51,258 bases of DNA from an uncultured Bacilli bacterium (GTDB lineage: Bacteria > Bacillota_I > Bacilli_A > RF39 > UBA660). Positions within the stretch are counted from its first letter, which is position 1, and the number at the start of each line of letters is the position of its first letter. Made by a program: the position numbers and the translations under genes. Below the pieces are notes generated by a model. It was not told the origin of the DNA and searched no databases. It saw only the letters and a program-made list of their open reading frames with translations. Of this stretch, positions 1,575 to 43,614 are shown in pieces. The DNA lies in contig CAKOKM010000002.1 of assembly GCA_934091015.1 (NCBI GenBank), positions 1-51,258 on the forward strand. Direction: 5' to 3'.

Positions 1575-3722
1575 ATGACTAAGAAAAGAGATATTAAAAT
1601 TGATGGGCAATTATTTATTGGAGAAGATAATTTAATTAAAGAAACTGAAAATATTAAATTAATAACTGAAGAAAATTTAAAAGAATATGCAGATATGTTA
1701 CAGTTTGATACTTTAGCACAAGAATGTATTTTAGAAGATTTATGTGAGTCTTATAATATAAATAGAGATGATATGTTTATATTAATTCATGAACTTAAAA
1801 GAAGAGGAAATAATATTGTTACTTTAAATACATCAGCAAAAAATAATGAAGATGGTTTAGATACAATGGTTACTTTAATACGCAATTTTGGGCATGAACA
1901 ATTAATTAATGATTTATCTTATAATATTGTAGATAATAGTGAACAGTTAAGAATTATGTTAATATCTGATACGAGATTTGGAAGTATTTATCAACAAACA
2001 ACTATTTTAAATGATATGTATTTAAAAGCAAAAGAAATGGGAGTTAAATATGTATTCTTAACAGGTGATGTTGTAGAAGGCGTTTATAGGGGAGTAAAAA
2101 GTATTTATAATAGTACTCTTCATAAAGATGGTTATAAGGATCAAGCAGAATATGTTTCATCTTGTTTTCCTAGAGTTGAAGGAATTACTACTTATTTTAT
2201 AACTGGTGAACATGATTTAAGTTTCTTAAGAGGTACTGATAAGGTTGATATTGGTAAGTTAATTTCTGATCATAGGGATGATATGATATATTTAGGGCCT
2301 AAGAGAAAGAAAGTCTCATTCATATGCAATGATAAGAGAAGTGGAAATATTTCATTATATTTACATCATTCTAGTGGAAATGTACCATATACTATAAGTT
2401 ATAAACCACAACAAAAGATATCTTCACTTAGAAATGAAGATAAGACTGATATTTTAGTTACTAGTCATTTTGCTGCTTGTGATTCATTTTTAAGAAGAGG
2501 TGTTAGAAGTTATCAGGTGCCAACTGTTACAGCAACAACTGATGAAATGAAAGATGCTAATACGCCAGTATATAATACGATAGGAAGTTGGATAGTTACT
2601 TTAGATAAAGATAAAAAAGGAAATTTAAAAGGAACAAGTCAAATGTATATTCCTTATTATAAAACTATTAAAGATGATTATCGAACTTTTAAAAAATTAG
2701 AGTTACTTGATCATACTACAATAAGTGTTCCAGAAGTAAATGTAAAAGATGATAAAGATAAAATATTTGATATGTTAAAAAATGGTCAAAGTTTAGATGA
2801 CTTATCTAAAAAATTAGGTATATCTTCTTTAAAATTAGGTGGCGTTATTGAAGAACTTAACGCTAGAGGATATGACATAAATATAGTTGATAATAAAGTT
2901 GTTGTTAAGAAAAGTAAAAATAAGAATAATAAATCTATTAAACCTAATATGAGTGAATTAAAGAAAATTAGACAGTTATGGATATCTGATACTCATTTAT
3001 GTAATGAGGCTCAACAACTAAATTTACTTAATAAAGTTTATAAGGAAGCTTATGATAGAGGAATAGATACAGTGTTGCATTTTGGAGATGTACTTGATGG
3101 TGATTATCATAATAGACCTGAACATCAATATGCTTTATTTAGGTTAGGTGCTTCAAGACAACTAGATTATATTACTAATTATTACCCTAAAGTTGATGGG
3201 ATAGATACATATTTTATAACTGGTACTCATGATCAAACTCATTGTAAAAATGGCGGGGTATTTATGGGCGAAGCTATTGAAGAAAAAAGACCTGATATGC
3301 ATTTCTTAGGTGATGATAAAGGAATATTTAATCCTAAAGAAAGTATTAAAACAAGTGAAGAAATGTTCCACCCAGGAGGAGGATGTTCTTCTAGTTTATC
3401 TTATAAAATGCAAAAGTATATTGATAAAATTGAGCCTGGTACTAAACCTAATATTATTGGAAGTGGTCATTTTCATCAAAGCCATATGATGGCATATCGT
3501 AATGTGATTGCATTCTTAATTCCTTGTTTAACAGCTAAAACTAACTTTGCAATTAGACAAGGATTAGAAAACACGATGGGAGCTTATTTTATTGATATGT
3601 ATGTTAATAAAGATGGTGATATTGAAATGATTGAATTTGAAGAAAAAAGATATACGGAAAAAGATATTAAAAAAGATGATTATATGAAAACTAAACAATT
3701 AGTTTTGAAAAGAGATAATTAA
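1575..3722 (+). CDS. internally duplicated calcineurin-like metallophosphoesterase
   Basis: Two modules, each a small helical domain followed by a phosphoesterase. Copy 1 motifs: LISDTRFG, TGDVVEG, TGEHD. Copy 2 motifs: ISDTHL, FGDVLDGDY, TGTHD, GSGHFHQSH. I moved the start to the ATG at 1575, which follows AGGCGAG. Confidence 0.7.
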   Translation: MTKKRDIKIDGQLFIGEDNLIKETENIKLITEENLKEYADMLQFDTLAQECILEDLCESYNINRDDMFILIHELKRRGNNIVTLNTSAKNNEDGLDTMVTLIRNFGHEQLINDLSYNIVDNSEQLRIMLISDTRFGSIYQQTTILNDMYLKAKEMGVKYVFLTGDVVEGVYRGVKSIYNSTLHKDGYKDQAEYVSSCFPRVEGITTYFITGEHDLSFLRGTDKVDIGKLISDHRDDMIYLGPKRKKVSFICNDKRSGNISLYLHHSSGNVPYTISYKPQQKISSLRNEDKTDILVTSHFAACDSFLRRGVRSYQVPTVTATTDEMKDANTPVYNTIGSWIVTLDKDKKGNLKGTSQMYIPYYKTIKDDYRTFKKLELLDHTTISVPEVNVKDDKDKIFDMLKNGQSLDDLSKKLGISSLKLGGVIEELNARGYDINIVDNKVVVKKSKNKNNKSIKPNMSELKKIRQLWISDTHLCNEAQQLNLLNKVYKEAYDRGIDTVLHFGDVLDGDYHNRPEHQYALFRLGASRQLDYITNYYPKVDGIDTYFITGTHDQTHCKNGGVFMGEAIEEKRPDMHFLGDDKGIFNPKESIKTSEEMFHPGGGCSSSLSYKMQKYIDKIEPGTKPNIIGSGHFHQSHMMAYRNVIAFLIPCLTAKTNFAIRQGLENTMGAYFIDMYVNKDGDIEMIEFEEKRYTEKDIKKDDYMKTKQLVLKRDN

Positions 3723-7965: not shown

Positions 7966-7990
7966 AAAAACACCTAATTAGGTGTTTTTT
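7966..7990. terminator. bidirectional rho-independent terminator
   Basis: AAAAACACCT-aatt-AGGTGTTTTT sits between convergent genes. Confidence 0.6.
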
Positions 7991-8901
7991 ATATTTATTT
8001 CTTTAATTAAGGTATTATCTAAATAATAAATTACTTTTGATACATCATAATTATCTTGAATAGATAAATTTAAAGTATAGATTGTTTCTTCTATTAAATC
8101 TTTAGATGAAAATACATTATTATTTAAATTTAAGACTATATAGTCGTTCTTAATTTCATAGTTTATTTTTTGAATATCTTTAATATAACTTATTAGATTA
8201 GTGTTATAAACTGATTTAGATGCCATTTGTTCAATTATAATTTTGATTTTATCATCTTTATTGTTGCTCATTAAAGTAATTGGTACATAATAATAAAAGT
8301 CATTATATTTAGATAAATAATAAATAGTTGTTTTAGTTATACCAGTAATTGAGTCAATATTAAATGTTTTATTAATTCCATAACTACGATCTAAAATAGA
8401 ATCAATTACTTCATTATTAGGTAACTTTGTTAAAATATTACCTTCTATATAAATAGATAATTTATAATTTGAATCCAAACTAGTTATAGAATAGATAAGA
8501 GAGGATATTAAGGTATCTATTTTATCATTTTCAATATTTAATAATTCTTTAGAAAAGTTAAGTTTAACTATGTTGTTATCAAGATCAACTGATAATAATT
8601 TAGTATCTTTAGGTATAACTTGTTTAAATCCTTCTTTAATATAATTGCTCTTATTACCATCAATAGTTAAGTAATTAATTATTTCTTTTATTTTATTTAT
8701 TCTGTCATTTTCTTTTAAAATAACATTAACTCTAGCTACATAATTATTGTAATCAATTAGATATATATAAGCATCTTTATAACTTTTTTTCTCATTATTA
8801 ATAGTTTCTATCTTTTTAGTCGGAAATAGATAGATAATTAAAATTATTAAGAGAGAAGATACAATTAAAAAGATACGTTTTTTTAATTTATTTTTTAACA
8901 T
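7978..8901 (-). CDS. gerM: GerM-like sporulation/germination protein (two GerMN-type modules)
   Basis: N-terminal membrane anchor and two repeated modules that resemble GerMN. It sits next to gerE. Start moved to the ATG 5 nt after GGTGG. Confidence 0.55.
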   Translation of the reverse strand: MLKNKLKKRIFLIVSSLLIILIIYLFPTKKIETINNEKKSYKDAYIYLIDYNNYVARVNVILKENDRINKIKEIINYLTIDGNKSNYIKEGFKQVIPKDTKLLSVDLDNNIVKLNFSKELLNIENDKIDTLISSLIYSITSLDSNYKLSIYIEGNILTKLPNNEVIDSILDRSYGINKTFNIDSITGITKTTIYYLSKYNDFYYYVPITLMSNNKDDKIKIIIEQMASKSVYNTNLISYIKDIQKINYEIKNDYIVLNLNNNVFSSKDLIEETIYTLNLSIQDNYDVSKVIYYLDNTLIKEINIKNT

Positions 8902-8959
8902 AAATTCCACCATTAAAATTATATGCTAATTAAAAAAATAAAGTCGCTAATTTGCGACT

Positions 8960-9169
8960 TTATAAAGTTATTTCACCTAATTTAATTAATTCTAATATAG
9001 CACATGATCTATTTTTGCAATCTAATTTTTGAATTACATTAGATATATGATTTCTTACAGTTTTTTCACTAATTAGCAGTTCGTCTGAAATTTGTTTTGT
9101 ACTTTTATTAGTTACTAATAAGTTAAATATTTCTTTTTCTCTTTTAGTTAATAGTGATTCCACTTCCAA
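8960..9169 (-). CDS. gerE: GerE, LuxR-family sporulation regulator
   Basis: 69 aa. LTKREKEIFNLLV...ISEKTVRNHISNVIQKL closely matches my recollection of B. subtilis GerE. Confidence 0.85.
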   Translation of the reverse strand: MEVESLLTKREKEIFNLLVTNKSTKQISDELLISEKTVRNHISNVIQKLDCKNRSCAILELIKLGEITL

Positions 9170-9234
9170 TCTTCCTTTCCATAGTATCCTCTTGATATTT
9201 TATGATAGAGAAAGATAGTTAGTGAATAATCATA

Positions 9235-9723
9235 TTATTGATATTTAACTGTAATGTACATTTGTTTATCAAATTCTTTTTGAATTGTTCTAATAATGTT
9301 ATTAGCGTCTGTTACATTACTGTTTTTAGATGATATTATAACACTTATTTGATCATCTTTAATTTTAATAAAACTTTTTAAATTATATGTTTTAAGAATT
9401 AAAGATTCTAATTTGTTTTCTTTACCTTTAGTACTATTAATACCTTTTAATTTTTCATAAGCATTATTTTTTTCTTGAACACTGACAGTTTGGTCTAAAA
9501 GAATTTCTTGGAGTTCAGCAATAACTTTTTGATCTTGATCATCATTTTCTACTCTTAAAGCACTTAAAGTATCCTCCTCTTTAACATTTAAGGTTTCACT
9601 AGTAGAAGTATTAGATGGCATTAATTTTGTTAAGTTATCTTCATCTAAAGCTACATAGTAAACTGAAAGTACTAATATAATACTAAATAAAGTTAAAAAC
9701 CATAATTTTTGTTTGTTAATCAT
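9235..9723 (-). CDS. spoIIIAH: SpoIIIAH-like sporulation protein
   Basis: N-terminal anchor ending LSVYY, an acidic linker and a C-terminal domain laid out as in SpoIIIAH. ATG at 9723 follows GGAGGA. Confidence 0.6.
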   Translation of the reverse strand: MINKQKLWFLTLFSIILVLSVYYVALDEDNLTKLMPSNTSTSETLNVKEEDTLSALRVENDDQDQKVIAELQEILLDQTVSVQEKNNAYEKLKGINSTKGKENKLESLILKTYNLKSFIKIKDDQISVIISSKNSNVTDANNIIRTIQKEFDKQMYITVKYQ

Positions 9724-9784
9724 TATTATCCTCCATATCAATTTAATTATATTAAAGTAAAATAAAATTATGATATTTTTTTAA

Positions 9785-24743: not shown

Positions 24744-25252
24744 TTGTAGTTAATTGTTATATCAGATTTTTTAAAGTAAAATTATCATGTCTAAACTTTT
24801 CTGTAATTATTTTTTGATTTATTCATATTTATTTTAAATTTTTTAATGCTTATAAAACGTTAATGATTATTGTGTTCTCATTACGAAAAAAGGTACAAAA
24901 CGGAAAAAATTCGTAATGGATGGTATAGGAATATAAATAGAGATTATTGTTACTAAAGATGGAGTTGGTTCATATATAAATGATGATGGTATACTATTTT
25001 TAAATATTTATGAATTCTTATTAAATGAAAATAGTTTAGAAATATAAAAAGTTAGATTTGCAGTAAATACATATAAAATGAAACGAAATAATAAACTTAA
25101 AAAATTTTTACTTTGAGAATTAAATATATTGTATATTGCAACTTAAATGCATATGGTATAGACATTTTCTAAAAAGTATGGTAAATTATTCGTACATAAG
25201 CAATTATGTTATGCAAATTGTTGCATATAATATTAGTGCAACATGTTGTTAT

Positions 25253-25365
25253 AAAAAAGCTAGTGATTCCCACTAAGAGAGGAACTTAAAAAAGAAGTGA
25301 TTCCGGCTTAGACAGGAACTTAAAAAAGAAGCGATTCCGGCTTAAATAGGAACTTAAAAAAGAAA
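25253..25365 (+). ncRNA. toxI: type III antitoxin RNA: about three tandem 34-35-nt repeats (ToxI/antiQ-like)
   Basis: Repeats at 25253-25287 (35 nt, divergent), 25288-25321 and 25322-25355 (34 nt each), then a partial fourth. Each begins AAAAAAG and ends GGAACTT. Confidence 0.8.
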
Positions 25366-25387
25366 CTAGAGAGCTTACTCTAGTTTT
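25363..25387 (+). terminator. hairpin between the antitoxin repeats and toxN
   Basis: AAACTAGAG-agctta-CTCTAGTTT followed by TTATT. This is the position of the attenuating terminator in known ToxIN loci. Confidence 0.6.
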
Positions 25388-25406: not shown

Positions 25407-25922
25407 ATGGATAAGTTATTTTTAGTTAAGATAGATTATAAATATTGTAACTATTTAAGAAAGTTTGATAATAAAGTGCCATATAATATGGATAAAAAAG
25501 AATTGAGACCCTTTATTGGCGTTTTATTTGAAATAAATAAATGTAAATATTTTGCGCCATTATCAAGCCCAAAAGAAAAACATAAAACAATGAGAAGCAG
25601 TATTGATTTCTTAAAAATTGATAATGGTAATCTTGGAGCTATTAATTTTAATAATATGATACCAGTTGCTAATAGCAATATTATTTACTTAAATTTAAAT
25701 GAAAAACCAAAAGATAAGAAAGAAGCAAAATATTATAAATTACTTACTGAACAATTATTTTGGTTAAATCGTAATGATGTAAAAGTATTTAAAAGATCAA
25801 GAAATTTATATGATAAATATAAAAATAAAGATTTAAATGAGAATATAATTAAAAGATGCTGCAATTTCCCTCTACTTGAAGAAAAATGTAAAGAATATAA
25901 TAATATAGAACAAAAAGTTTAA
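25407..25922 (+). CDS. toxN: ToxN/AbiQ-family type III toxin endoribonuclease
   Basis: 171 aa. The blocks YLRKFDNKVP, FIGVLFEINKCKYFAPLSSPKEKH, LGAINFNNMIP and CCNFPLLEEKCKEY match my recollection of ToxN. RBS GGGGGA. Confidence 0.85.
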   Translation: MDKLFLVKIDYKYCNYLRKFDNKVPYNMDKKELRPFIGVLFEINKCKYFAPLSSPKEKHKTMRSSIDFLKIDNGNLGAINFNNMIPVANSNIIYLNLNEKPKDKKEAKYYKLLTEQLFWLNRNDVKVFKRSRNLYDKYKNKDLNENIIKRCCNFPLLEEKCKEYNNIEQKV

Positions 25923-30574: not shown

Positions 30575-30599
30575 AAAAATATCGTGATTAAAAAAATAT

Positions 30600-30630
30600 G
30601 GTTTTATGTTATTTACATAAAACCTTTTTT
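30600..30630 (+). terminator. rho-independent terminator of polC
   Basis: GGTTTTATG-ttattta-CATAAAACC followed by TTTTTT. Confidence 0.7.
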
Positions 30631-30663
30631 AAGGTAAAATTATATAAGATAGGTGGCATGTGT

Positions 30664-33048
30664 ATGAACACTGAAATGAATAAAAAGAAAATTATTATGT
30701 TATTAATCATGTTTGGATTAGTTTTATCAATAATTATGGGAGTAACTTTTTCTTATTTGTTACCAATAATTAATAATGTAGAAACAGATTCAACAGTTGT
30801 ATTTAATGCAGGAATTATATCAGCAACATATGAAAATGGAAGTAATCAAATAGTTTCAAGTGAAGTACTACCTGGCTGGTCAGAAACAAAAACATTTAGT
30901 TTAACAGCAGTAAATTCAACAACAATTAGAAAAGCTGGAGCTATGAATTATTCACTAAAACTAATAGTAGATTCAAATACATTTAGTGATAACTCAATAG
31001 CAGTATCATTAAAAAGTACAAATACATCAAATAATGGAACCCCAGCAGAGATGATATCAGGAACATTGTTAAGTGGACCAAGTGAAGTAAGTTTAGGATT
31101 TGGATCATTTGATGCAACACAGGAAATAGGAGAAGAAGGAGTAACACATGATTTTGAGTTAAAACTTTCATTTCCAGAACAATATAGAAGTCAAAATAAT
31201 GACATGGATAAATCCATTGCAGCACATGTAGTAGTAGAAAGAGCAAATGATTTAGGAAACTTAACAATAGTAGATAATTATGAAAGTTATAATAAAACAA
31301 TAAATATAGAAAAGAATAAAGAAGTAAATTTATTAAGTTTATATAGTTATCCAATAAAGAAAACATATTCAATCATAAGTGGAGAAGGAACAATTAATTC
31401 AAATAAATTAACATTAAAAAGTGATGAAATGAAAGTATCAATAAATTATCCATCAGTATCAGATACAATAGCAGATTTAGATAAAGAAACAAATGGATTA
31501 GAAGAAGATGATACAGCAGATAAAAACTTAAGATATGTAGGTGCAAGTCCAAAAAATTACATTACTTTTAATGATGAAACATGGAGAATAATAGGCATAT
31601 TTAATGTATTTAATGTTGAAACTAATACAACTGAAAAACTTGTAAAAATAGTAAGAAATGATTCACTAGGAGATTATTCATGGGATAGTTCAGATTCATC
31701 AAAAAATAATGGCTACGGAATCAATGAATGGAGTCAAGCCGATTTAATGAACGAATTAAATACTGATTATATAAATCCAAATCCAACAAGTGAAACAACA
31801 GAATGGTTTAATGGACGAAATAATGCAAAAAATGGATCATACAATTATAGTAATAATATGAAAAGTACTTCAATGGATAAAATAGCCAAAGTAAGATGGA
31901 ACTTAGGCGGTTATTCAACATCACAAGTTACTGCGTTAAATATGTATAATGCTGAAAGAGGAACATTACATATAAGTAATCCATCAGATGAAACAACAAG
32001 AACCAACACATGGGATGGAAAAATAGCATTAATATATCCAAGTGATTATGGCTATGCCTCAACGGATACAACATGTAGAGGAGATTTAATGTCATCTGAT
32101 TCTAATTATAAAGGATATTGTAAAAATGAAAACTGGTTATTTAACGGTGCATATCAATGGACTTTGTCCCCTAGTTCTGGCAATGCGAGTAATGTGTTCT
32201 ATGTCGATTCGGACGGGTATGTCGGCAGCGGCAGTGCGATCAACGCTATTGGTGTGCGTCCGGCCCTTTTCTTAAAATCTGATGTAGTTGTAACAAGTGG
32301 AACTGGTGATGAAAAAGATCCATATAAAATTTCTTCACGAGCATCATTTGCAAATGACGCATGGGAAACAATAGCAAATAACGTTAAATCAGAAAAATCA
32401 TATTTATATAATATCGGCGATGAAAAAGAAGTAGAAATAGGTGGAACAAATTATACTGTACGTGTTGCCAATAACACCACACCAAGTGATTGTAATAAAG
32501 ATGATTTTTCCCAGACAGCCTGTGGATTTGTAGTAGAGTTTGTTGATATTGTAGAAAATAGAAAAATGAATAGTACTGATACCAATGTAGGTGGCTGGCC
32601 AGCAACAGCAATGAGAACATACTTAAACGACGAGTTTTATAATAGTTTACCAGAAGATTTAAGAAATGTGATAGCAGATACCAAAGTAATATCAGGACAT
32701 GGAAAAAGTGATACAAGTAATTTTCCATCAACTGATAAAATATATTTATTAAGTGGACATGAAATATATGAAGATGCATCACCAACAACGTCATCATTAT
32801 CAGCAAGAGATACAGCCTATAATAATACAAGACAATTAGATTATTATAAGAATAAAGGAGTAACAACAAGAAGCTATTTAGAAACTAGAAAGAAACCACT
32901 AGGCTCTAGTTCTTATGATTGGTGGTGGCTGCGCGCGGCTAATTCCAGCAGTGACGATAATTTCCTAAGTGTTGGTAGCGACGGCGACTGGAACATCATT
33001 AATGCTAGCGATTCAAGTGGCGTTTCTCCAGCTTTCCGTATCGGATAA
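30664..33048 (+). CDS. secreted protein with two C-terminal-type 'W-x-L ... G-V-[RS]-P-A' modules
   Basis: ATG lies 7 nt after AGGTGG. N-terminal signal/anchor (KKKIIMLLIMFGLVLSIIMGVTFSY, like a SipW-type signal). The two homologous module ends fall at 32158-32271 and 32920-33045. Confidence 0.8.
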   Translation: MNTEMNKKKIIMLLIMFGLVLSIIMGVTFSYLLPIINNVETDSTVVFNAGIISATYENGSNQIVSSEVLPGWSETKTFSLTAVNSTTIRKAGAMNYSLKLIVDSNTFSDNSIAVSLKSTNTSNNGTPAEMISGTLLSGPSEVSLGFGSFDATQEIGEEGVTHDFELKLSFPEQYRSQNNDMDKSIAAHVVVERANDLGNLTIVDNYESYNKTINIEKNKEVNLLSLYSYPIKKTYSIISGEGTINSNKLTLKSDEMKVSINYPSVSDTIADLDKETNGLEEDDTADKNLRYVGASPKNYITFNDETWRIIGIFNVFNVETNTTEKLVKIVRNDSLGDYSWDSSDSSKNNGYGINEWSQADLMNELNTDYINPNPTSETTEWFNGRNNAKNGSYNYSNNMKSTSMDKIAKVRWNLGGYSTSQVTALNMYNAERGTLHISNPSDETTRTNTWDGKIALIYPSDYGYASTDTTCRGDLMSSDSNYKGYCKNENWLFNGAYQWTLSPSSGNASNVFYVDSDGYVGSGSAINAIGVRPALFLKSDVVVTSGTGDEKDPYKISSRASFANDAWETIANNVKSEKSYLYNIGDEKEVEIGGTNYTVRVANNTTPSDCNKDDFSQTACGFVVEFVDIVENRKMNSTDTNVGGWPATAMRTYLNDEFYNSLPEDLRNVIADTKVISGHGKSDTSNFPSTDKIYLLSGHEIYEDASPTTSSLSARDTAYNNTRQLDYYKNKGVTTRSYLETRKKPLGSSSYDWWWLRAANSSSDDNFLSVGSDGDWNIINASDSSGVSPAFRIG
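32158..32271 (+). other. adenine-depleted NNY-codon island 1 (DGR variable-region-like)
   Basis: 38 codons with no third-position A. Only 17 A in total, all in NNY codons. Confidence 0.5.
32920..33045 (+). other. adenine-depleted NNY-codon island 2 at the C-terminus (DGR variable-region-like)
   Basis: 42 codons. Third-position A appears in only four, all 4-fold-degenerate (cta, tca, cca, gga). Includes the run aat tcc agc agt gac gat aat. Confidence 0.5.
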
Positions 33049-33096
33049 TAATGTAAACTAAATGTAAAGCAAGAAATAATATAATTAAGCAGGGAT

Positions 33097-33207
33097 AGGA
33101 AAATCGTTTCCTAGAGGGCCGTTCCTGCGAGCGAAAGCGAGTAAAATAGACGGCCCATAAGATAAAAAAATAAATCCCATCTGATTGACGTAAGGAAATC
33201 AGATGGG
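33097..33207 (+). other. cluster of three stable hairpins in the 3' region of the secreted-protein gene
   Basis: AGGAAA-atcg-TTTCCT (33097-33112); GGGCCGT-n27-ACGGCCC with an internal GAAA loop (33116-33156); CCCATCTGATT-n10-AATCAGATGGG (33176-33207). Confidence 0.5.
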
Positions 33208-33429
33208 TACATAAAGTATTATGAAAGATAAATATAATAAAATAATAAGAAATGTTTATAAAGATAGTTTTAATATAAAGTGTGGCTCTAGAATTTCTAG
33301 TGGGGAGTTTTTATAAGAAAACTTCGTGTTTTAGTGGGGAGATATTTTAATAGATATCTTTCTTTTTTTGGTTAAATAATCGTTATTAATTAAATCTAGG
33401 TTAAAACATATAATTAATTGGTGATGCAT

Positions 33430-33663
33430 ATGCTAGATATAATTAATAGTGCATTAAGAAATAATAATTATTATATTTGTTTGTATAAAAATAATATTTA
33501 TCTTTATAACTATATAGATATATTGTCTTTTGATAATAATTTGATAATGATTAAATTTGATAATTTTAATTTAAAAATTAAAGGAAGCAATATGTTAATA
33601 AAACATATGCAAGAAAAAGAATTAATTATTTCTGGTAATATTGTAGGAGTATCCTATGAATAA
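33430..33663 (+). CDS. yqfC: sporulation protein YqfC
   Basis: Small ORF immediately upstream of and overlapping yqfD. Start placed 5 nt after GGTGA. Confidence 0.7.
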   Translation: MLDIINSALRNNNYYICLYKNNIYLYNYIDILSFDNNLIMIKFDNFNLKIKGSNMLIKHMQEKELIISGNIVGVSYE

Positions 33664-34792
33664 AATTATTAAGATAGAAGTTAATGATAATATTAATAGA
33701 TTTATAAATAAATGTATTAATAATAAAATATATATTACAAATATAAATTATATTAATGATAATAAAATTACTTGTGATATTAATAGTGTTGATTATAAAA
33801 AAGTTAAAAAAATAAATTATTATTCTAAGATTAAAATTATAGATTATATTGGGTTTTATAAAATTAAAGAATTAATAAAAAATAATATATTTTTAATAAT
33901 TATATTTATGTTGTCTTTTGGATTAATGGATATAATAACTAGTTATATAGTAGATATAGAGGTTATTCATTCTTCCTCTAGTATTCGTAAGTTAATATAT
34001 AAAGAATTAGATAATAATAATATTAAGAAATATTCTTTTGCTTATGATTTTAATGAGTTAGATAAAATTCAAAAAAATATTTTAAATAATAATAAAGATA
34101 GATTAGAATGGATAAGTATTACTAGAGATGGTATGAAGTATATTATTAGATGTGAAGAAAGAAAGATTAAAAATATTAACAAAGAAACTGGATATCGTCA
34201 TGTTATAGCTAAAAAAGATGCTTATATTACTAAGATAATTTCTACTAAGGGTGAAAATGTTGTTAGAAGTGGGGAATATGTTAAAAAAGGTGATTTATTA
34301 ATTAGTGGAGAAATTAAGTTATATGATGCAGTTAAGGGAGATACTTTAGCAACTGGATCAGTTTATGGTAATGTTTGGTATAATGTTAATATAAGTGTTC
34401 CAAAAGAAGAACCTAGAAGAGAGTTTACTGGTAAAAAAAGATTTAATTTAAATATTAATGATAAAATATTTCTTAAAAATAAATATAAGTATTTTACTCA
34501 AGATAATATTAGAGAAATTAAGTTTTTAGGATTAAAAATTAAAATTTATAAAGAGAAAGAATATGTTAATAAAAAGTATATTTTAAGTGATGAAGAGATT
34601 GAAAATTTAGTAAATAATAAGATAAAAGAAAAATTTAATAATATTGGAACAATTAGTAGTCAAAAAGTTTTGAAAAAAGAGATAAATAATAGTACAATAG
34701 ATTATAGAGTATTTGTTATTTGTAATGAACTTATTAGTGAATATAAATACTATGAAAAGAGTGATGCTAATGATACCCAAAGCAGCAATTGA
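33656..34792 (+). CDS. yqfD: sporulation protein YqfD (stage IV)
   Basis: 378 aa with one central TM segment. yqfC-yqfD synteny upstream of ybeY-dgkA-cdd-era-recO. Confidence 0.75.
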   Translation: MNKIIKIEVNDNINRFINKCINNKIYITNINYINDNKITCDINSVDYKKVKKINYYSKIKIIDYIGFYKIKELIKNNIFLIIIFMLSFGLMDIITSYIVDIEVIHSSSSIRKLIYKELDNNNIKKYSFAYDFNELDKIQKNILNNNKDRLEWISITRDGMKYIIRCEERKIKNINKETGYRHVIAKKDAYITKIISTKGENVVRSGEYVKKGDLLISGEIKLYDAVKGDTLATGSVYGNVWYNVNISVPKEEPRREFTGKKRFNLNINDKIFLKNKYKYFTQDNIREIKFLGLKIKIYKEKEYVNKKYILSDEEIENLVNNKIKEKFNNIGTISSQKVLKKEINNSTIDYRVFVICNELISEYKYYEKSDANDTQSSN

Positions 34793-39852: not shown

Positions 39853-42800
39853 ATGAGTAAGAAAAAGAAATTATTTAGTGCGGTTGTACTAACTATAGGA
39901 TTATTTATAGTTTTATTAGGAAGTATGATTAGCTCTAATAATTATAAAAATACAAATGTAAGTGATAATGAAAATAATGAAATAGCAGCTGGTACTGGTT
40001 GTATTAGTGTTATTAATAAAAATAGCGGCACTTACTCAATTACAGGAAGTGGCCTTGATATTATTAATTGTTGCACTAATAAAAAAGGATGCAAATATTA
40101 TGTTTCTGTAAGTAATGGAAGTTATTTTGGATTAAATGGAAAATGTACTACAAATCAAGGAACAGATACACGTTCATCAACAATCTTTCCTAGTTCAGCA
40201 GGTTTAACATTTACTGTTTGTGGACCAACAACTGTAGCTAGCAGGTATATTTCTGCATATACAAATGGAAATGTAATTGTTAAATGTTCGGGAAGTGGTT
40301 GTGAAAGTTATACTTCTAATAAATGTAATGTTGGAAAGGGAAATTGTACGTTTACTGGAACACCAAATTCTGGATACAATGTAAGTAGTAGTAGCAGTTG
40401 TACAAATCCACAATCCACACTTAGTTATACTGTTAATTCTAAAAATACTAGTAATGTTTATTTTTATTCATGTGCAAAACAAACAGCTACTACTAAAGCA
40501 AAATCTGTTTATGCTAAGAATCGTAGCGGAAATGATAAGCTAAATGTTACATGCTATAGTTCTGCTGGAGCATGTGTAAATAGTTCGACATGTAATGTTT
40601 CAAAAGGACTATGCACTTTTACGGCAACTGCACAATCTAATTATAATGTAAGTCGAAATTCTGATTGTTCTTATAAACAAACTAAATTAGAAGATTCAGT
40701 TTCAATTGGATCTAGTGATATTAACTATTATGCTTGTCCAGTAAATAATCAAAGTGGAGGCACAACATCAACTTGTAAAATAAATTTAAACGTAAATAGT
40801 GGTGAAACATACTCCATTTTTGATGGTGGTGAATTTAAATTTTCAACTGGAAAATCAACAAGTTATGATTGTAAATCACAAAATTGTTATGCACAAATTA
40901 CTTCATACTCCGATTCAAATAAATATAAAGGTTTAGCTGGAGATGGAGATTGTTCAACTGGTGTTAGAACAACAGGAACGAGAGTGGATTGTACAAATAA
41001 TTCTGTTAGTGTAAAAGCATGCTATGATAGTCCAAAAAATAATCAATTAATAATAAGATCAATAAATGGTGGCGTAGCACGTATATCGAAGATTACGTCC
41101 GGTGAAGGTACAATAGAGCCAGGAGGACAAACAGCTGAATGTACACAGGAACCATGTGAATTTCTTGTTATTGCAGAAGAAAATTATGGATTTGGATATG
41201 GTTTAAATGGTTCGACCTGTACTAATAATTTACGAGAAGGAACTGTTACTGTATCAAAAAGTGATACTGTTATATATGTGTGCCCAAAAAATTCTGGTAG
41301 TTCATCAGGAGGAACATATACACCTATACCCGAACCGTCGGTAGAAGATAATAAAACAGTAACTAAAAAGCAATTTTTCTATGCAAATGGAACTCAATAT
41401 CAAGGTAATTCAATAAAATGTGGAGATAAAGTATATGTAACAACATGTACTGCAGGAGATAATGCAATATGTAATGTAACATCAATAAATTCAACATCAG
41501 TAAGTACAACAACACAAATATATGAAAAAGATTTAGTAACAAACTTACAAGATACAGGATGTTATCAAAAAATCGAAAGATATATAACAGAAAAAACAAA
41601 TTACTATTCAAATAGAGAATTAAGCAAAAATGCAACTGAAATAGGATGTGGATCAGTAATAACATTCAAACAAGAGATAAAAAATGCATGTGTAAATAAG
41701 TCATGTGAAGTAGAATATAATGGTAAAATAGTATATATAAATATAGATTATATAACAAGTGATAAACCTGCATGTCAAAATCAAAATACTAGTGGTGGAA
41801 ATACAGGAGGAAGTACAAGCAGTGATACAAACACATGTGTAACTTCTAAAAGTTTAACAGGAGTAAAAGGAGAAGTAACAGTATCAATATGTAAAAAAGA
41901 TGATACAGAAGATACAAAAAATAAGATAGTAACATGTGCAGAAGATTATACATATCAATATAGATTAACAAAAGATACATGTAAAGATAGTAATTCGGAA
42001 AATTGTTATAAAGAATATATATATACATGTAATTATATAAAAAGACCAGGAATAAATGCATCAGCAGGAACAATAAAATCAAATGGTAAAGGAACAATAA
42101 CAGTAACAGGAATGCCATATGGAAATATTGGAATCTTAGGATATCATGTATCAAATGGAGAAGAACCAACAGTAAATTCAGGATGGAGTACATTTAATGC
42201 TATAAATAATACATTTAGTATTGAAAGATCAGCCGGAACATATTTCATATGGGCAATAAATAATAAACGTAGAATTAGTTATCCGGTCTTAGCAAAAGTA
42301 TATGATTCCGATTTAAGTACAACATTATCATCATTTAGTTTAAAAGATGAAAACGGAAATAATATAAATGTAACTATGAATTCATTAGATAACACAGTTG
42401 GATATAATGAACCAGTTAAAGATTCAAATTATGCATTGCTAACAAATAATTTATTAGCAGATTCAATAGGTGGATTTGATAAATTAACAACATCATATGA
42501 ATTATCAGTAACATCAAATAAAATAGCCATTTATGCAACCTTAACAAGTAATGATGCATCATATGTATCAGGATATGAACCAAGAACGATAGATTTAGAA
42601 TACGGAAGAAATGTAGCTCTAATAAAAATAGTTAATAAAAATGGAAAAGAAAGATGTTATACATTTATAATAAATAGAGTAGATGATCGAAATAGTTCTA
42701 ATTTACTTAAAAATATAAAATTAAGTAGAGGAAGTATTGATTTTGATCCATATACAACAAATTATGATGTAAAGATAAGTAGATTTACTAAAAAAGTAAG

Positions 42801-43614
42801 TATAAATGCTGAATTAGATAGTAGTACATCAACATTTATCTCAGGATATGAACCAAGAGAGGTAGAGATAACAGAAGATAGACAATCAGTAGTACTTAAA
42901 GTAATAAGTGAGGCAGGAAGTATCAGAAGTTATGTAATAACCTTTACAAGAAATGGTGAAGAAAAAGATAATGTAAATAGTACATATTTAAGTAGTTTAA
43001 CAGTACCGGGAACAATGCTTGGATTTGATAAAGAAACATATGATTATACAATAACAGTGCCATATGAAACCGAAGATATTCCAGTATATGCCTTTGCTGA
43101 AGATGAAAATGCGACAGTAAATGTAGGAAATAATACCGGATTAAAAGTAGGAAATAATCTAATTCAAATAGAAGTAAAAAATAATAATAAAACAAGAATC
43201 TATAGTTTACATGTAATAAGAAAAGAAAGTGGATTAGATATATCAAATTCAGCAAGATTAGGAACACTTAGTATAAAGAATTATAATATAGAATTTAATC
43301 CAGATAAGTTAGATTATGAAGTAAAAATAAAAAGAGAAAAGACATTATTAATAAGTGCAACACCTGAATCAAATAGAGCAGATATCTATATGTATGGAAA
43401 TAATGATTTAACCGGATTTAGTACAGTAAGAGTAAAAGTAATAGCTGAGAATGGATTAACAAATATATATTCAATAGATATTCAAAAAGATGCATATAAT
43501 AAGAAAATTGAGATAATTGCAAGTGTAGCAGGAGTTAGTACTGTAATAATAGTTGGAGTTATAGTTTACCTTAAAAATAAACATAACAAGAGAAAAGAAT
43601 ATTTAGAAGGATGA
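39853..43614 (+). CDS. large surface protein: Cys-rich N-terminal repeats, four cadherin-like beta-sandwich repeats, C-terminal TM anchor
   Basis: Signal/anchor at the N-terminus and repeated C..G.CTFT.T...YNVS modules. Four repeats of about 90 aa end in IYS(L/I).(V/I). The C-terminus is a TM segment followed by a KNKHNKRK tail. Confidence 0.8.
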   Translation: MSKKKKLFSAVVLTIGLFIVLLGSMISSNNYKNTNVSDNENNEIAAGTGCISVINKNSGTYSITGSGLDIINCCTNKKGCKYYVSVSNGSYFGLNGKCTTNQGTDTRSSTIFPSSAGLTFTVCGPTTVASRYISAYTNGNVIVKCSGSGCESYTSNKCNVGKGNCTFTGTPNSGYNVSSSSSCTNPQSTLSYTVNSKNTSNVYFYSCAKQTATTKAKSVYAKNRSGNDKLNVTCYSSAGACVNSSTCNVSKGLCTFTATAQSNYNVSRNSDCSYKQTKLEDSVSIGSSDINYYACPVNNQSGGTTSTCKINLNVNSGETYSIFDGGEFKFSTGKSTSYDCKSQNCYAQITSYSDSNKYKGLAGDGDCSTGVRTTGTRVDCTNNSVSVKACYDSPKNNQLIIRSINGGVARISKITSGEGTIEPGGQTAECTQEPCEFLVIAEENYGFGYGLNGSTCTNNLREGTVTVSKSDTVIYVCPKNSGSSSGGTYTPIPEPSVEDNKTVTKKQFFYANGTQYQGNSIKCGDKVYVTTCTAGDNAICNVTSINSTSVSTTTQIYEKDLVTNLQDTGCYQKIERYITEKTNYYSNRELSKNATEIGCGSVITFKQEIKNACVNKSCEVEYNGKIVYINIDYITSDKPACQNQNTSGGNTGGSTSSDTNTCVTSKSLTGVKGEVTVSICKKDDTEDTKNKIVTCAEDYTYQYRLTKDTCKDSNSENCYKEYIYTCNYIKRPGINASAGTIKSNGKGTITVTGMPYGNIGILGYHVSNGEEPTVNSGWSTFNAINNTFSIERSAGTYFIWAINNKRRISYPVLAKVYDSDLSTTLSSFSLKDENGNNINVTMNSLDNTVGYNEPVKDSNYALLTNNLLADSIGGFDKLTTSYELSVTSNKIAIYATLTSNDASYVSGYEPRTIDLEYGRNVALIKIVNKNGKERCYTFIINRVDDRNSSNLLKNIKLSRGSIDFDPYTTNYDVKISRFTKKVSINAELDSSTSTFISGYEPREVEITEDRQSVVLKVISEAGSIRSYVITFTRNGEEKDNVNSTYLSSLTVPGTMLGFDKETYDYTITVPYETEDIPVYAFAEDENATVNVGNNTGLKVGNNLIQIEVKNNNKTRIYSLHVIRKESGLDISNSARLGTLSIKNYNIEFNPDKLDYEVKIKREKTLLISATPESNRADIYMYGNNDLTGFSTVRVKVIAENGLTNIYSIDIQKDAYNKKIEIIASVAGVSTVIIVGVIVYLKNKHNKRKEYLEG

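Follow-up and report, generated by a model that had tools for sequence, protein, structure and literature searches.

An adenine-poor island in a surface-protein gene of an uncultured gut Bacilli lineage as the probable variable region of a chromosomal diversity-generating retroelement

The stretch of DNA analysed here (hereafter the window: 51,258 nt, positions 1 to 51,258 of contig CAKOKM010000002.1, assembly GCA_934091015.1, from an uncultured Bacilli bacterium) carries a gene for a secreted or surface protein at 30664–33048 (+ strand; 794 aa, P0001). A preliminary description, made from the sequence alone, noticed an adenine-poor island within this gene and read it as the variable region (VR) of a diversity-generating retroelement (DGR). 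Follow-up supports that reading: 32164–32267 is very probably a genuine VR, and its gene a remote target of a DGR that is chromosomal, probably of the MutS-like (MSL) type, and belongs to an uncultured gut Bacilli lineage. The relation of the VR to a template repeat (TR), the gene content of the cassette in which that repeat lies and adenine-specific variation among strains were all observed directly, and the domain in which the island is found is in agreement with them.

Composition of the island

The island as first noted (32158–32271, + strand) is in frame with the open reading frame (ORF) and comprises 38 codons, translated as WTLSPSSGNASNVFYVDSDGYVGSGSAINAIGVRPALF. Every item of the composition originally reported was recomputed and is exact: third codon positions are T16, C13, G9 and A0, and the 17 A per 114 nt each occupy position 1 or 2 of an NNY codon. 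The third positions of the gene minus the island are A 49%, T 36%, C 8% and G 7%, and from these frequencies the probability of 38 successive codons without adenine at the third position is ~7e-12, or ~6e-9 when corrected for ~760 possible positions of such a run. No other 38-codon segment of the target gene is free of third-position adenine. GC content is 54% in the island versus 24.6% in the window, and a GC-composition profile of the target gene has two peaks, one at this island and one at a second island considered at the end of this paper. The pattern had been described as adenine avoidance and not import from a GC-rich donor. This needs one refinement: third-position G+C is 58% in the island vs 15% in the rest of the gene, which exceeds pure adenine avoidance. 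The base composition of the island is that of a GC-rich template from which it is copied. Judged by the boundaries of that template, the true repeat is 32164–32267 (104 nt), and the ends first given for the island were ≤6 nt off on each side.

Variation among strains and the template repeat

Loci of related strains were fetched from metagenome and genome assemblies (L0xx below). In syntenic orthologues from other metagenome assemblies, the flanks have 93–97% DNA identity to the window, and the target protein has 66–70% amino-acid identity. Codon alignment of the island gives an identity of 0.67 at positions 1 and 2 and 0.89–0.94 at position 3, the reverse of the trend in the rest of the gene. 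Sixteen NNY codons vary, in their first two bases only, and the scaffold codons interspersed among them are identical, synonymous sites included. Polymorphism at strain level is thus confined to positions 1 and 2 of the NNY codons, which is what a DGR reading had been said to require. A wider set of 72 homologous proteins holds 61 distinct VR peptides, whose variable sites use almost exclusively NNY-codable residues. The VR scaffold pattern, searched against one genome per species, recovered 2 further VRs at other chromosomal sites, in ~500-aa single-domain paralogues of 'uncultured Bacilli' metagenome-assembled genomes (MAGs) of the Hadza study; it found no TR in that set. For one of the two, L017, this is explained by the absence of a cassette from that genome at that locus.

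The variation among orthologues predicts a template with AAY at the variable codons. This TR-specific pattern has exactly 1 match in the metagenome collection, on contig L018, and 0 matches in the viral contigs. The matching repeat, TTGTCCCCTAATTCTGGCAATGCGAATAAT...GGTGTGCGTCCAGCCCT, is 104 nt long and non-coding, and the same sequence is present at L019 391–494, L018 2371–2474 (minus strand) and L020 1568–1671. Thirty of its 31 adenines lie in 15 AAY codons, the remaining one being the third base of CCA. The extent of the window VR (32164–32267, + strand) was defined by blastn and ungapped comparison with this repeat. Against the copy at L019 391–494 it has 17 mismatches, which fall on 16/31 adenines and 1/73 other bases (Fisher p = 1.6e-9). 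The sole mismatch at a base other than adenine changes GGC to GAC, and another TR variant reads GAC. When eight VRs from six genomic contexts are pooled, 140/248 adenine positions differ from the TR and 15/584 others do. Adenine-specific TR–VR mismatches are the defining signature of DGR mutagenic retrohoming, and the DGR reading is therefore supported. The cassette has a GC content of 20.5%, and the TR is therefore a GC-rich island there too. A template copy of this kind had been proposed as a thing to look for; a ~104-nt copy with mismatches almost all at template adenines does exist, but in related contigs and not in the contig of the window.

The DGR cassette

On L018 the TR is followed by a 122-aa ORF, a 114-aa Avd-like ORF and a 350-aa reverse transcriptase (RT). 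The DGR-type RT and Avd-like gene anticipated from the island alone both adjoin the TR in related contigs, with no RT in the window's contig. The RT, ~0.9 kb from the TR, matches PF00078 (RVT_1; E = 8e-12) and PHROG 1423 (E = 2e-66) and contains the motifs IGNMTSQ and YMDD. It shares 35% identity with the RT of nd12, a phage whose DGR, with DUF6273 targets, has been published. The Avd-like ORF overlaps the start of the RT and matches NF033474 DivGenRetAVD (E = 7.5e-9, positions 1–104 of 104), PF22296 bAvd (E = 4e-7) and the PHROG 'Avd protein of DGR' (E = 3e-10), all of these matches being full-length and all below curated cut-offs. Between the TR and avd, the 122-aa ORF is present in all cassettes. 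It has no significant Pfam or NCBIfam match of its own; among its 35 homologues, one distant one carries PF01624 MutS_I, and for this reason the ORF resembles the MSL accessory gene of the DGRs known as Architecture D.

Longer contigs give the order of the cassette as a paralogous DUF6273 target with its own VR, a small ORF, TR, MSL, avd and RT. This canonical layout, in which the VR of the adjacent target lies just 5' of the TR, is found in L020, L021 and L025–L043. The neighbours of the cassette are housekeeping genes, either rimP-nusA-infB or addAB, and no phage genes are present there.

The target protein and its variable domain

Translation of the target gene most likely starts at ATG 30664, where the database protein P0001 also begins, and not at 30598 as previously listed; upstream of 30664 lie a terminator-like hairpin of polC (30600–30624) and a promoter-like site (30612–30640). 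The N-terminus of the protein has a hydrophobic signal or anchor, followed by a weak camelysin/TasA-like region (a weak Peptidase_M73 match in Pfam). Pfam DUF6273 matches two stretches of the protein (E = 2e-25), and each of the two islands forms the C-terminal end of one DUF6273 copy. In the first copy, a C-type-lectin-like domain at 31483–32367 (+ strand), the island makes up the C-terminal strands. The AlphaFold2 model of this copy has a pLDDT of 86.4 and a pTM of 0.89, and its best Foldseek match in the PDB is 9qa6, the N-terminal DUF6273 domain of the T. ramosa IgA peptidase (E = 2e-10), with weak matches to C-type-lectin domains behind it. In BFVD the model matches phage 'DUF6273 domain-containing' proteins with probability 1.00, and the first domain has a PHROG match to 'Hoc-like head decoration' (E = 1e-9). 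DUF6273 has been described as the C-type-lectin-like domain of DGR targets, with the VR at its C-terminus (PMC10743442; PMC11792537; bioRxiv 10.1101/2024.10.15.618418). The Pfam assignment, the fold matches and this literature all agree with the original suggestion that the island ends a lectin-fold-like domain at the place where DGR targets carry their VR.

The VR ends in a GC-rich 17-mer, GGTGTGCGTCCGGCCCT (32251–32267, + strand), which is shared with the TR, conserved across all VRs and TR variants, and located where a DGR has its initiation of mutagenic homing (IMH)-type element; by analogy with Bordetella phage BPP-1 it may have such a role here. Directly 3' of the VR lies the flank TTTCTTAAAATCTGATGT (32268–32285, + strand). 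All target paralogues share it as nucleotide sequence, but it is absent after the TR, and it therefore marks the target side of the repeat. No hairpin, inverted repeat or stable fold was found 3' of the VR, and the missing BPP-1-type hairpin counts against the DGR reading.

Established DGR biology suggests how these parts would work together. The 104-nt TR would be transcribed, and the DGR RT with its Avd partner would copy it into cDNA, misreading the adenines. The cDNA would then replace the VR at the end of the C-type-lectin-like (DUF6273) domain of the secreted or surface protein, and in each homing event ~15 residues of the binding face could be rewritten to any of the 15 NNY-encoded amino acids, with the A-free scaffold codons copied faithfully. 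An AAY-coded template together with such a scaffold would account for the NNY pattern of the island, for its lack of third-position adenine and for the high GC content of its scaffold.

Link between the cassette and the genome of the window

The window gene is targeted from a distance (in trans). The cassette of related strains lies at another chromosomal locus, beside a paralogue, and other paralogues elsewhere carry the same VR scaffold. Several results weigh against the reading given above, and those that concern the link between the cassette and this genome are as follows. Neither the window nor the other 10 kb of its 61.8-kb contig contains a TR-like copy, and there is none within 10 kb of the orthologues of three other strains. 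A-tolerant ungapped scans of the window and the fetched loci, made with the island and with the inferred TR, recovered only the VRs themselves before the cassette contigs were included. A six-frame search for Y[AVMTCL]DD, covering the window's whole contig and the orthologous loci, found no RT motif. Co-location was attempted through RT homologues, members of the RT cluster, the paralogue P0079, MSL homologues and cassette look-ups, and placed no cassette gene on the same contig as a polC-linked target; among the matches listed, none of the cassette genes is on one of the 1.17–1.19-Mb contigs. Two candidate connections were rejected: P0079 is a separate, eno-linked target without a cassette, and the first genes of the window are not continuous with the nusA-infB-truB operon of L019.

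The linkage, in the sense that this genome carries or once carried a cassette of the kind, is thus an inference, and four points support it. The VR scaffold and the TR are identical at 72/73 bases other than adenine, and the cassette-adjacent target has 80–85% nucleotide identity to the window gene. Behind the L017 target, in a Hadza Bacilli MAG, the sequence has 98% identity to the rimP-upstream sequence by the L019 cassette, and the cassette contigs and the window share cohorts and base composition.

Present activity of the variable region and decay of the cassette

Further results on the adverse side concern whether the VR is still being diversified. The window DNA is 100% identical over 2.8–22 kb, VR included, in four assemblies from two cohorts. 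The target genes of L009, L010 and L011 (10001–12376 in each, 2376 nt, orthologues of 30664–33048) have 0 single-nucleotide polymorphisms (SNPs) between strains; in the same strains there are 27–39 SNPs in polC and 26–40 in the downstream 3.1 kb, the flanks differing by ~0.8%. The eno-linked paralogue (L022 and L024, 10001–11479) likewise has 0 SNPs, and in more distant strains the target gene is far more diverged than its flanks, a pattern that looks like whole-allele exchange or sweeps. The strain-level variation called for at the outset is therefore present among syntenic orthologues but missing from the island among very close strains.

The cassettes, too, are mostly damaged, although the fetched loci are biased by the route of their retrieval and the counts are not frequencies. 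An uninterrupted RT was found in one allele only (L018–L020) among the fetched cassette loci, most of which are defective. RT codon 163, Cys in the intact allele, is TGA in 14 loci (L025–L033 and L035–L039; e.g. L025 4163–5230), and TGA is an ordinary stop in this genome. Database records of a '354-aa intact' RT were rejected as read-through of TGA by the gene caller, their DNA being identical to that of records called as 162 + 148 aa; such calls presumably come from a gene caller using a TGA-reading code on low-GC contigs. Other cassette loci have avd reduced to 42 codons and a split RT. The TR of L021 (901–1004) has a 3-nt deletion and a 1-nt insertion, and the avd–RT junction of this locus is deleted. 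In the TR of L041–L045, AAC AAC AAC AAT is replaced by GGC GGC AGC AGT, as if the template had itself been mutagenised or converted from a VR. Comparison of the adjacent VR with its own TR gives 3–5 mismatches at bases other than adenine in the strains with a nonsense RT and 1 in the intact allele. Finally, in L017 (GTDB species-representative MAG CAKOQK01) the target runs straight into the rimP upstream region and the cassette is absent. The whole DGR cassette stands between target and rimP in L019, where 3158–3260 has 98% identity to L017 6997–7099; on this comparison of sequences the cassette is a presence/absence polymorphism between the two.

Given the identical assemblies, the target genes with 0 SNPs and the defective or absent cassettes, the VR is probably static in this strain now, a record of past homing and not a site of ongoing diversification. 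The contrary view, that an intact cassette elsewhere in the strain's genome diversifies the VR today and the assemblies represent the dominant variant, appears unlikely. An intact RT allele of 350 aa does exist (L018–L020), and the VR beside it has 1 mismatch at a base other than adenine to its own TR; the window VR, compared with the best TR variants, also shows 1 such mismatch, suggesting fairly recent homing, and consensus assemblies would hide minority variants. Against this stand the identity of the VR in four assemblies from two cohorts, the zero target SNPs among strains with ~0.8% flank difference and the defective or missing state of most sampled cassettes.

A broader picture, which we put forward tentatively and with rather more doubt than the static state of the VR, is that of a spore-forming gut Bacilli lineage with an AT-rich genome of ~1.2 Mb, whose chromosomal MSL-type DGR serves at least 4 dispersed paralogous surface-protein targets in trans. 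This DGR may have been caught at every stage of loss (intact RT, nonsense RT, TR with indels or VR-like overwriting, clean absence), with frozen VRs spreading as whole-gene alleles and the window island as one fossil among them.

Alternative explanations for the island

Explanations that do without mutagenic homing fare worse. The island might have been imported from a GC-rich donor or homogenised by gene conversion among DUF6273 paralogues, its variation then being a mosaic of paralogue alleles. Several paralogues do share the scaffold at the nucleotide level, whole-gene alleles have clearly been exchanged or swept among strains, and one TR variant looks overwritten with VR-like bases. Conversion among existing copies cannot, however, yield 61 peptides differing only where the template has A, and the GC-rich scaffold is the TR's own, within a cassette of 20.5% GC, all of which makes this account very unlikely. 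Still less probable is an origin without any retroelement, by diversifying selection on a ligand-binding loop combined with odd local codon usage. Selection for diversity is plausible in itself, as the whole target gene is a hot spot of divergence (66–70% amino-acid identity vs 93–97% DNA identity for the flanks), but it leaves unexplained the non-coding 104-nt copy by an RT, with A exactly at the variable positions, the identical synonymous sites of the scaffold across strains and paralogues, and the restriction of variation to positions 1 and 2 of NNY codons.

The least credible of the alternatives is a GC-rich stretch maintained within the coding sequence for nucleic-acid structure or as a regulatory signal. 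A local GC content of 54% in a very AT-rich gene would fit such a signal, but half of the island positions are hypervariable, and the 3' part of the VR with its flank folds no better than shuffled sequence (z = 0.01). Rfam matches in the window are limited to two tRNAs, with nothing relevant in the intergenic region after the target gene.

Relation to known systems and significance

The DGR of Bordetella phage BPP-1 (Mtd, bAvd, Brt) is the prototype of these systems. The Bacilli DGR resembles it in its A-specific TR-to-VR mutagenesis, its AAY design, the position of the VR at the C-terminus of a C-type-lectin fold, the Avd partner and a VR that ends in a GC-rich element. It differs in that no hairpin follows the VR, the cassette is ordered TR-MSL-avd-RT and not avd-TR-RT, and the target is a remote bacterial gene. 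The DGR of Treponema denticola combines one chromosomal TR with several dispersed TvpA-type targets, and the scattered paralogous targets are what it has in common with the present case, along with a lectin/FGE-like fold that has the VR at its C-terminus. Its accessory gene is of the HRDC and not the MSL type, and its target domain family is another one.

Closer in target are the DUF6273-targeting DGRs of gut phages and prophages, namely the tentaclins of phages nd4 and nd12 (PMC10743442), the Faecalibacterium prophages Lelie, Roos and Pioen (PMC11792537) and Toutatisvirus (bioRxiv 10.1101/2024.10.15.618418); persistence of target genes where the DGR is absent has also been described (bioRxiv 10.1101/2024.10.15.618418). 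These and the Bacilli DGR agree in the family and fold of the target domain, DUF6273, which has the VR at its C-terminal end, and in that a single TR can serve multiple targets, a remote one among them. Unlike in the phages, the cassette and all targets here lie among housekeeping genes (polC, eno, nrnA/rimP-nusA, addAB) with no phage genes nearby, the host has a small AT-rich Bacilli genome, the cassette includes a MutS-like ORF, and the target has an N-terminal signal or anchor and a camelysin-like region in place of phage tail or Ig domains. MSL-containing DGRs form 'Architecture D', which includes the DGR of Legionella pneumophila (Wu et al. 2018, PMC5758913). The likeness to this group (PMC5758913) lies in a small MutS-like ORF with avd and RT, the MutS likeness here resting on one distant homologue, and in a chromosomal target that is a secreted or surface protein with a C-type-lectin fold.

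The known workings of DGRs are unchanged by this finding, and the system is of a well-known kind. What it adds is that a DGR VR can be recognised in raw sequence by composition alone, and that strain variation, converted into a search pattern, can lead to a distant template. It also assigns a hypervariable ligand-binding tip to a surface-protein family of an uncultured, small-genome Bacilli lineage of the human gut. Most novel is what appears to be a decay series of the retroelement at population level, in which 'frozen' VR alleles persist and recombine. A natural series of this kind could be used to ask how long VRs stay useful once the retroelement dies.

The second island and neighbouring features

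The second island (32899–33045, + strand) lies at the end of the second DUF6273 copy and is VR-like in place and composition, with ~50% GC and few third-position adenines, the second-lowest such region of the gene. It aligns in register with the first island at 48% nucleotide identity. Comparison of four orthologues shows it to be hypervariable at every codon position, with an indel, and no template for it is present in any fetched locus. A test for A among the variable bases was non-discriminating in this A-rich genome. The second island could be a drifting relic, or else a VR that belongs to another DGR or to one since lost.

The target gene is followed by an intergenic segment of ~290 nt (33049–33340), which is present in the window and in L012 and absent from L009 and L015. 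It contains GC-rich hairpins (GGGCCGT...ACGGCCC; CCCATCTGATT...AATCAGATGGG) and a repeated TAGTGGGGAG motif, with no Rfam match. The target gene has polC on one side and yabP/yqfD on the other, in a Bacilli-type genome with sporulation genes; those in the window, at 7978–9741 and 33418–34792, are GerM-like, SpoIIIAH, YabP/YqfC and YqfD. The near-complete contigs (L009–L011) are ~1.18 Mb long with 25% GC; for a putative spore former, this genome size is very small. Just before polC, a 34-nt tandem repeat of 3.3 copies (25252–25377) lies directly 5' of a ToxN-family toxin gene (25407–25922), and together they have the layout of a type III toxin–antitoxin system (ToxIN-like). Two large proteins with Cadherin-like domains are encoded at 39853–43614 and 45671–47071; the length of the first varies by strain (1253, 1157, 1100 and 980 aa), and the surrounding DNA, at 85–89% identity, is below the neighbouring genes. 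Past the window, L005 14164–18976 (~53.3–58.1 kb of the contig) encodes four consecutive sigma-70-family paralogues of 379–414 aa, of which the related L006 has two.

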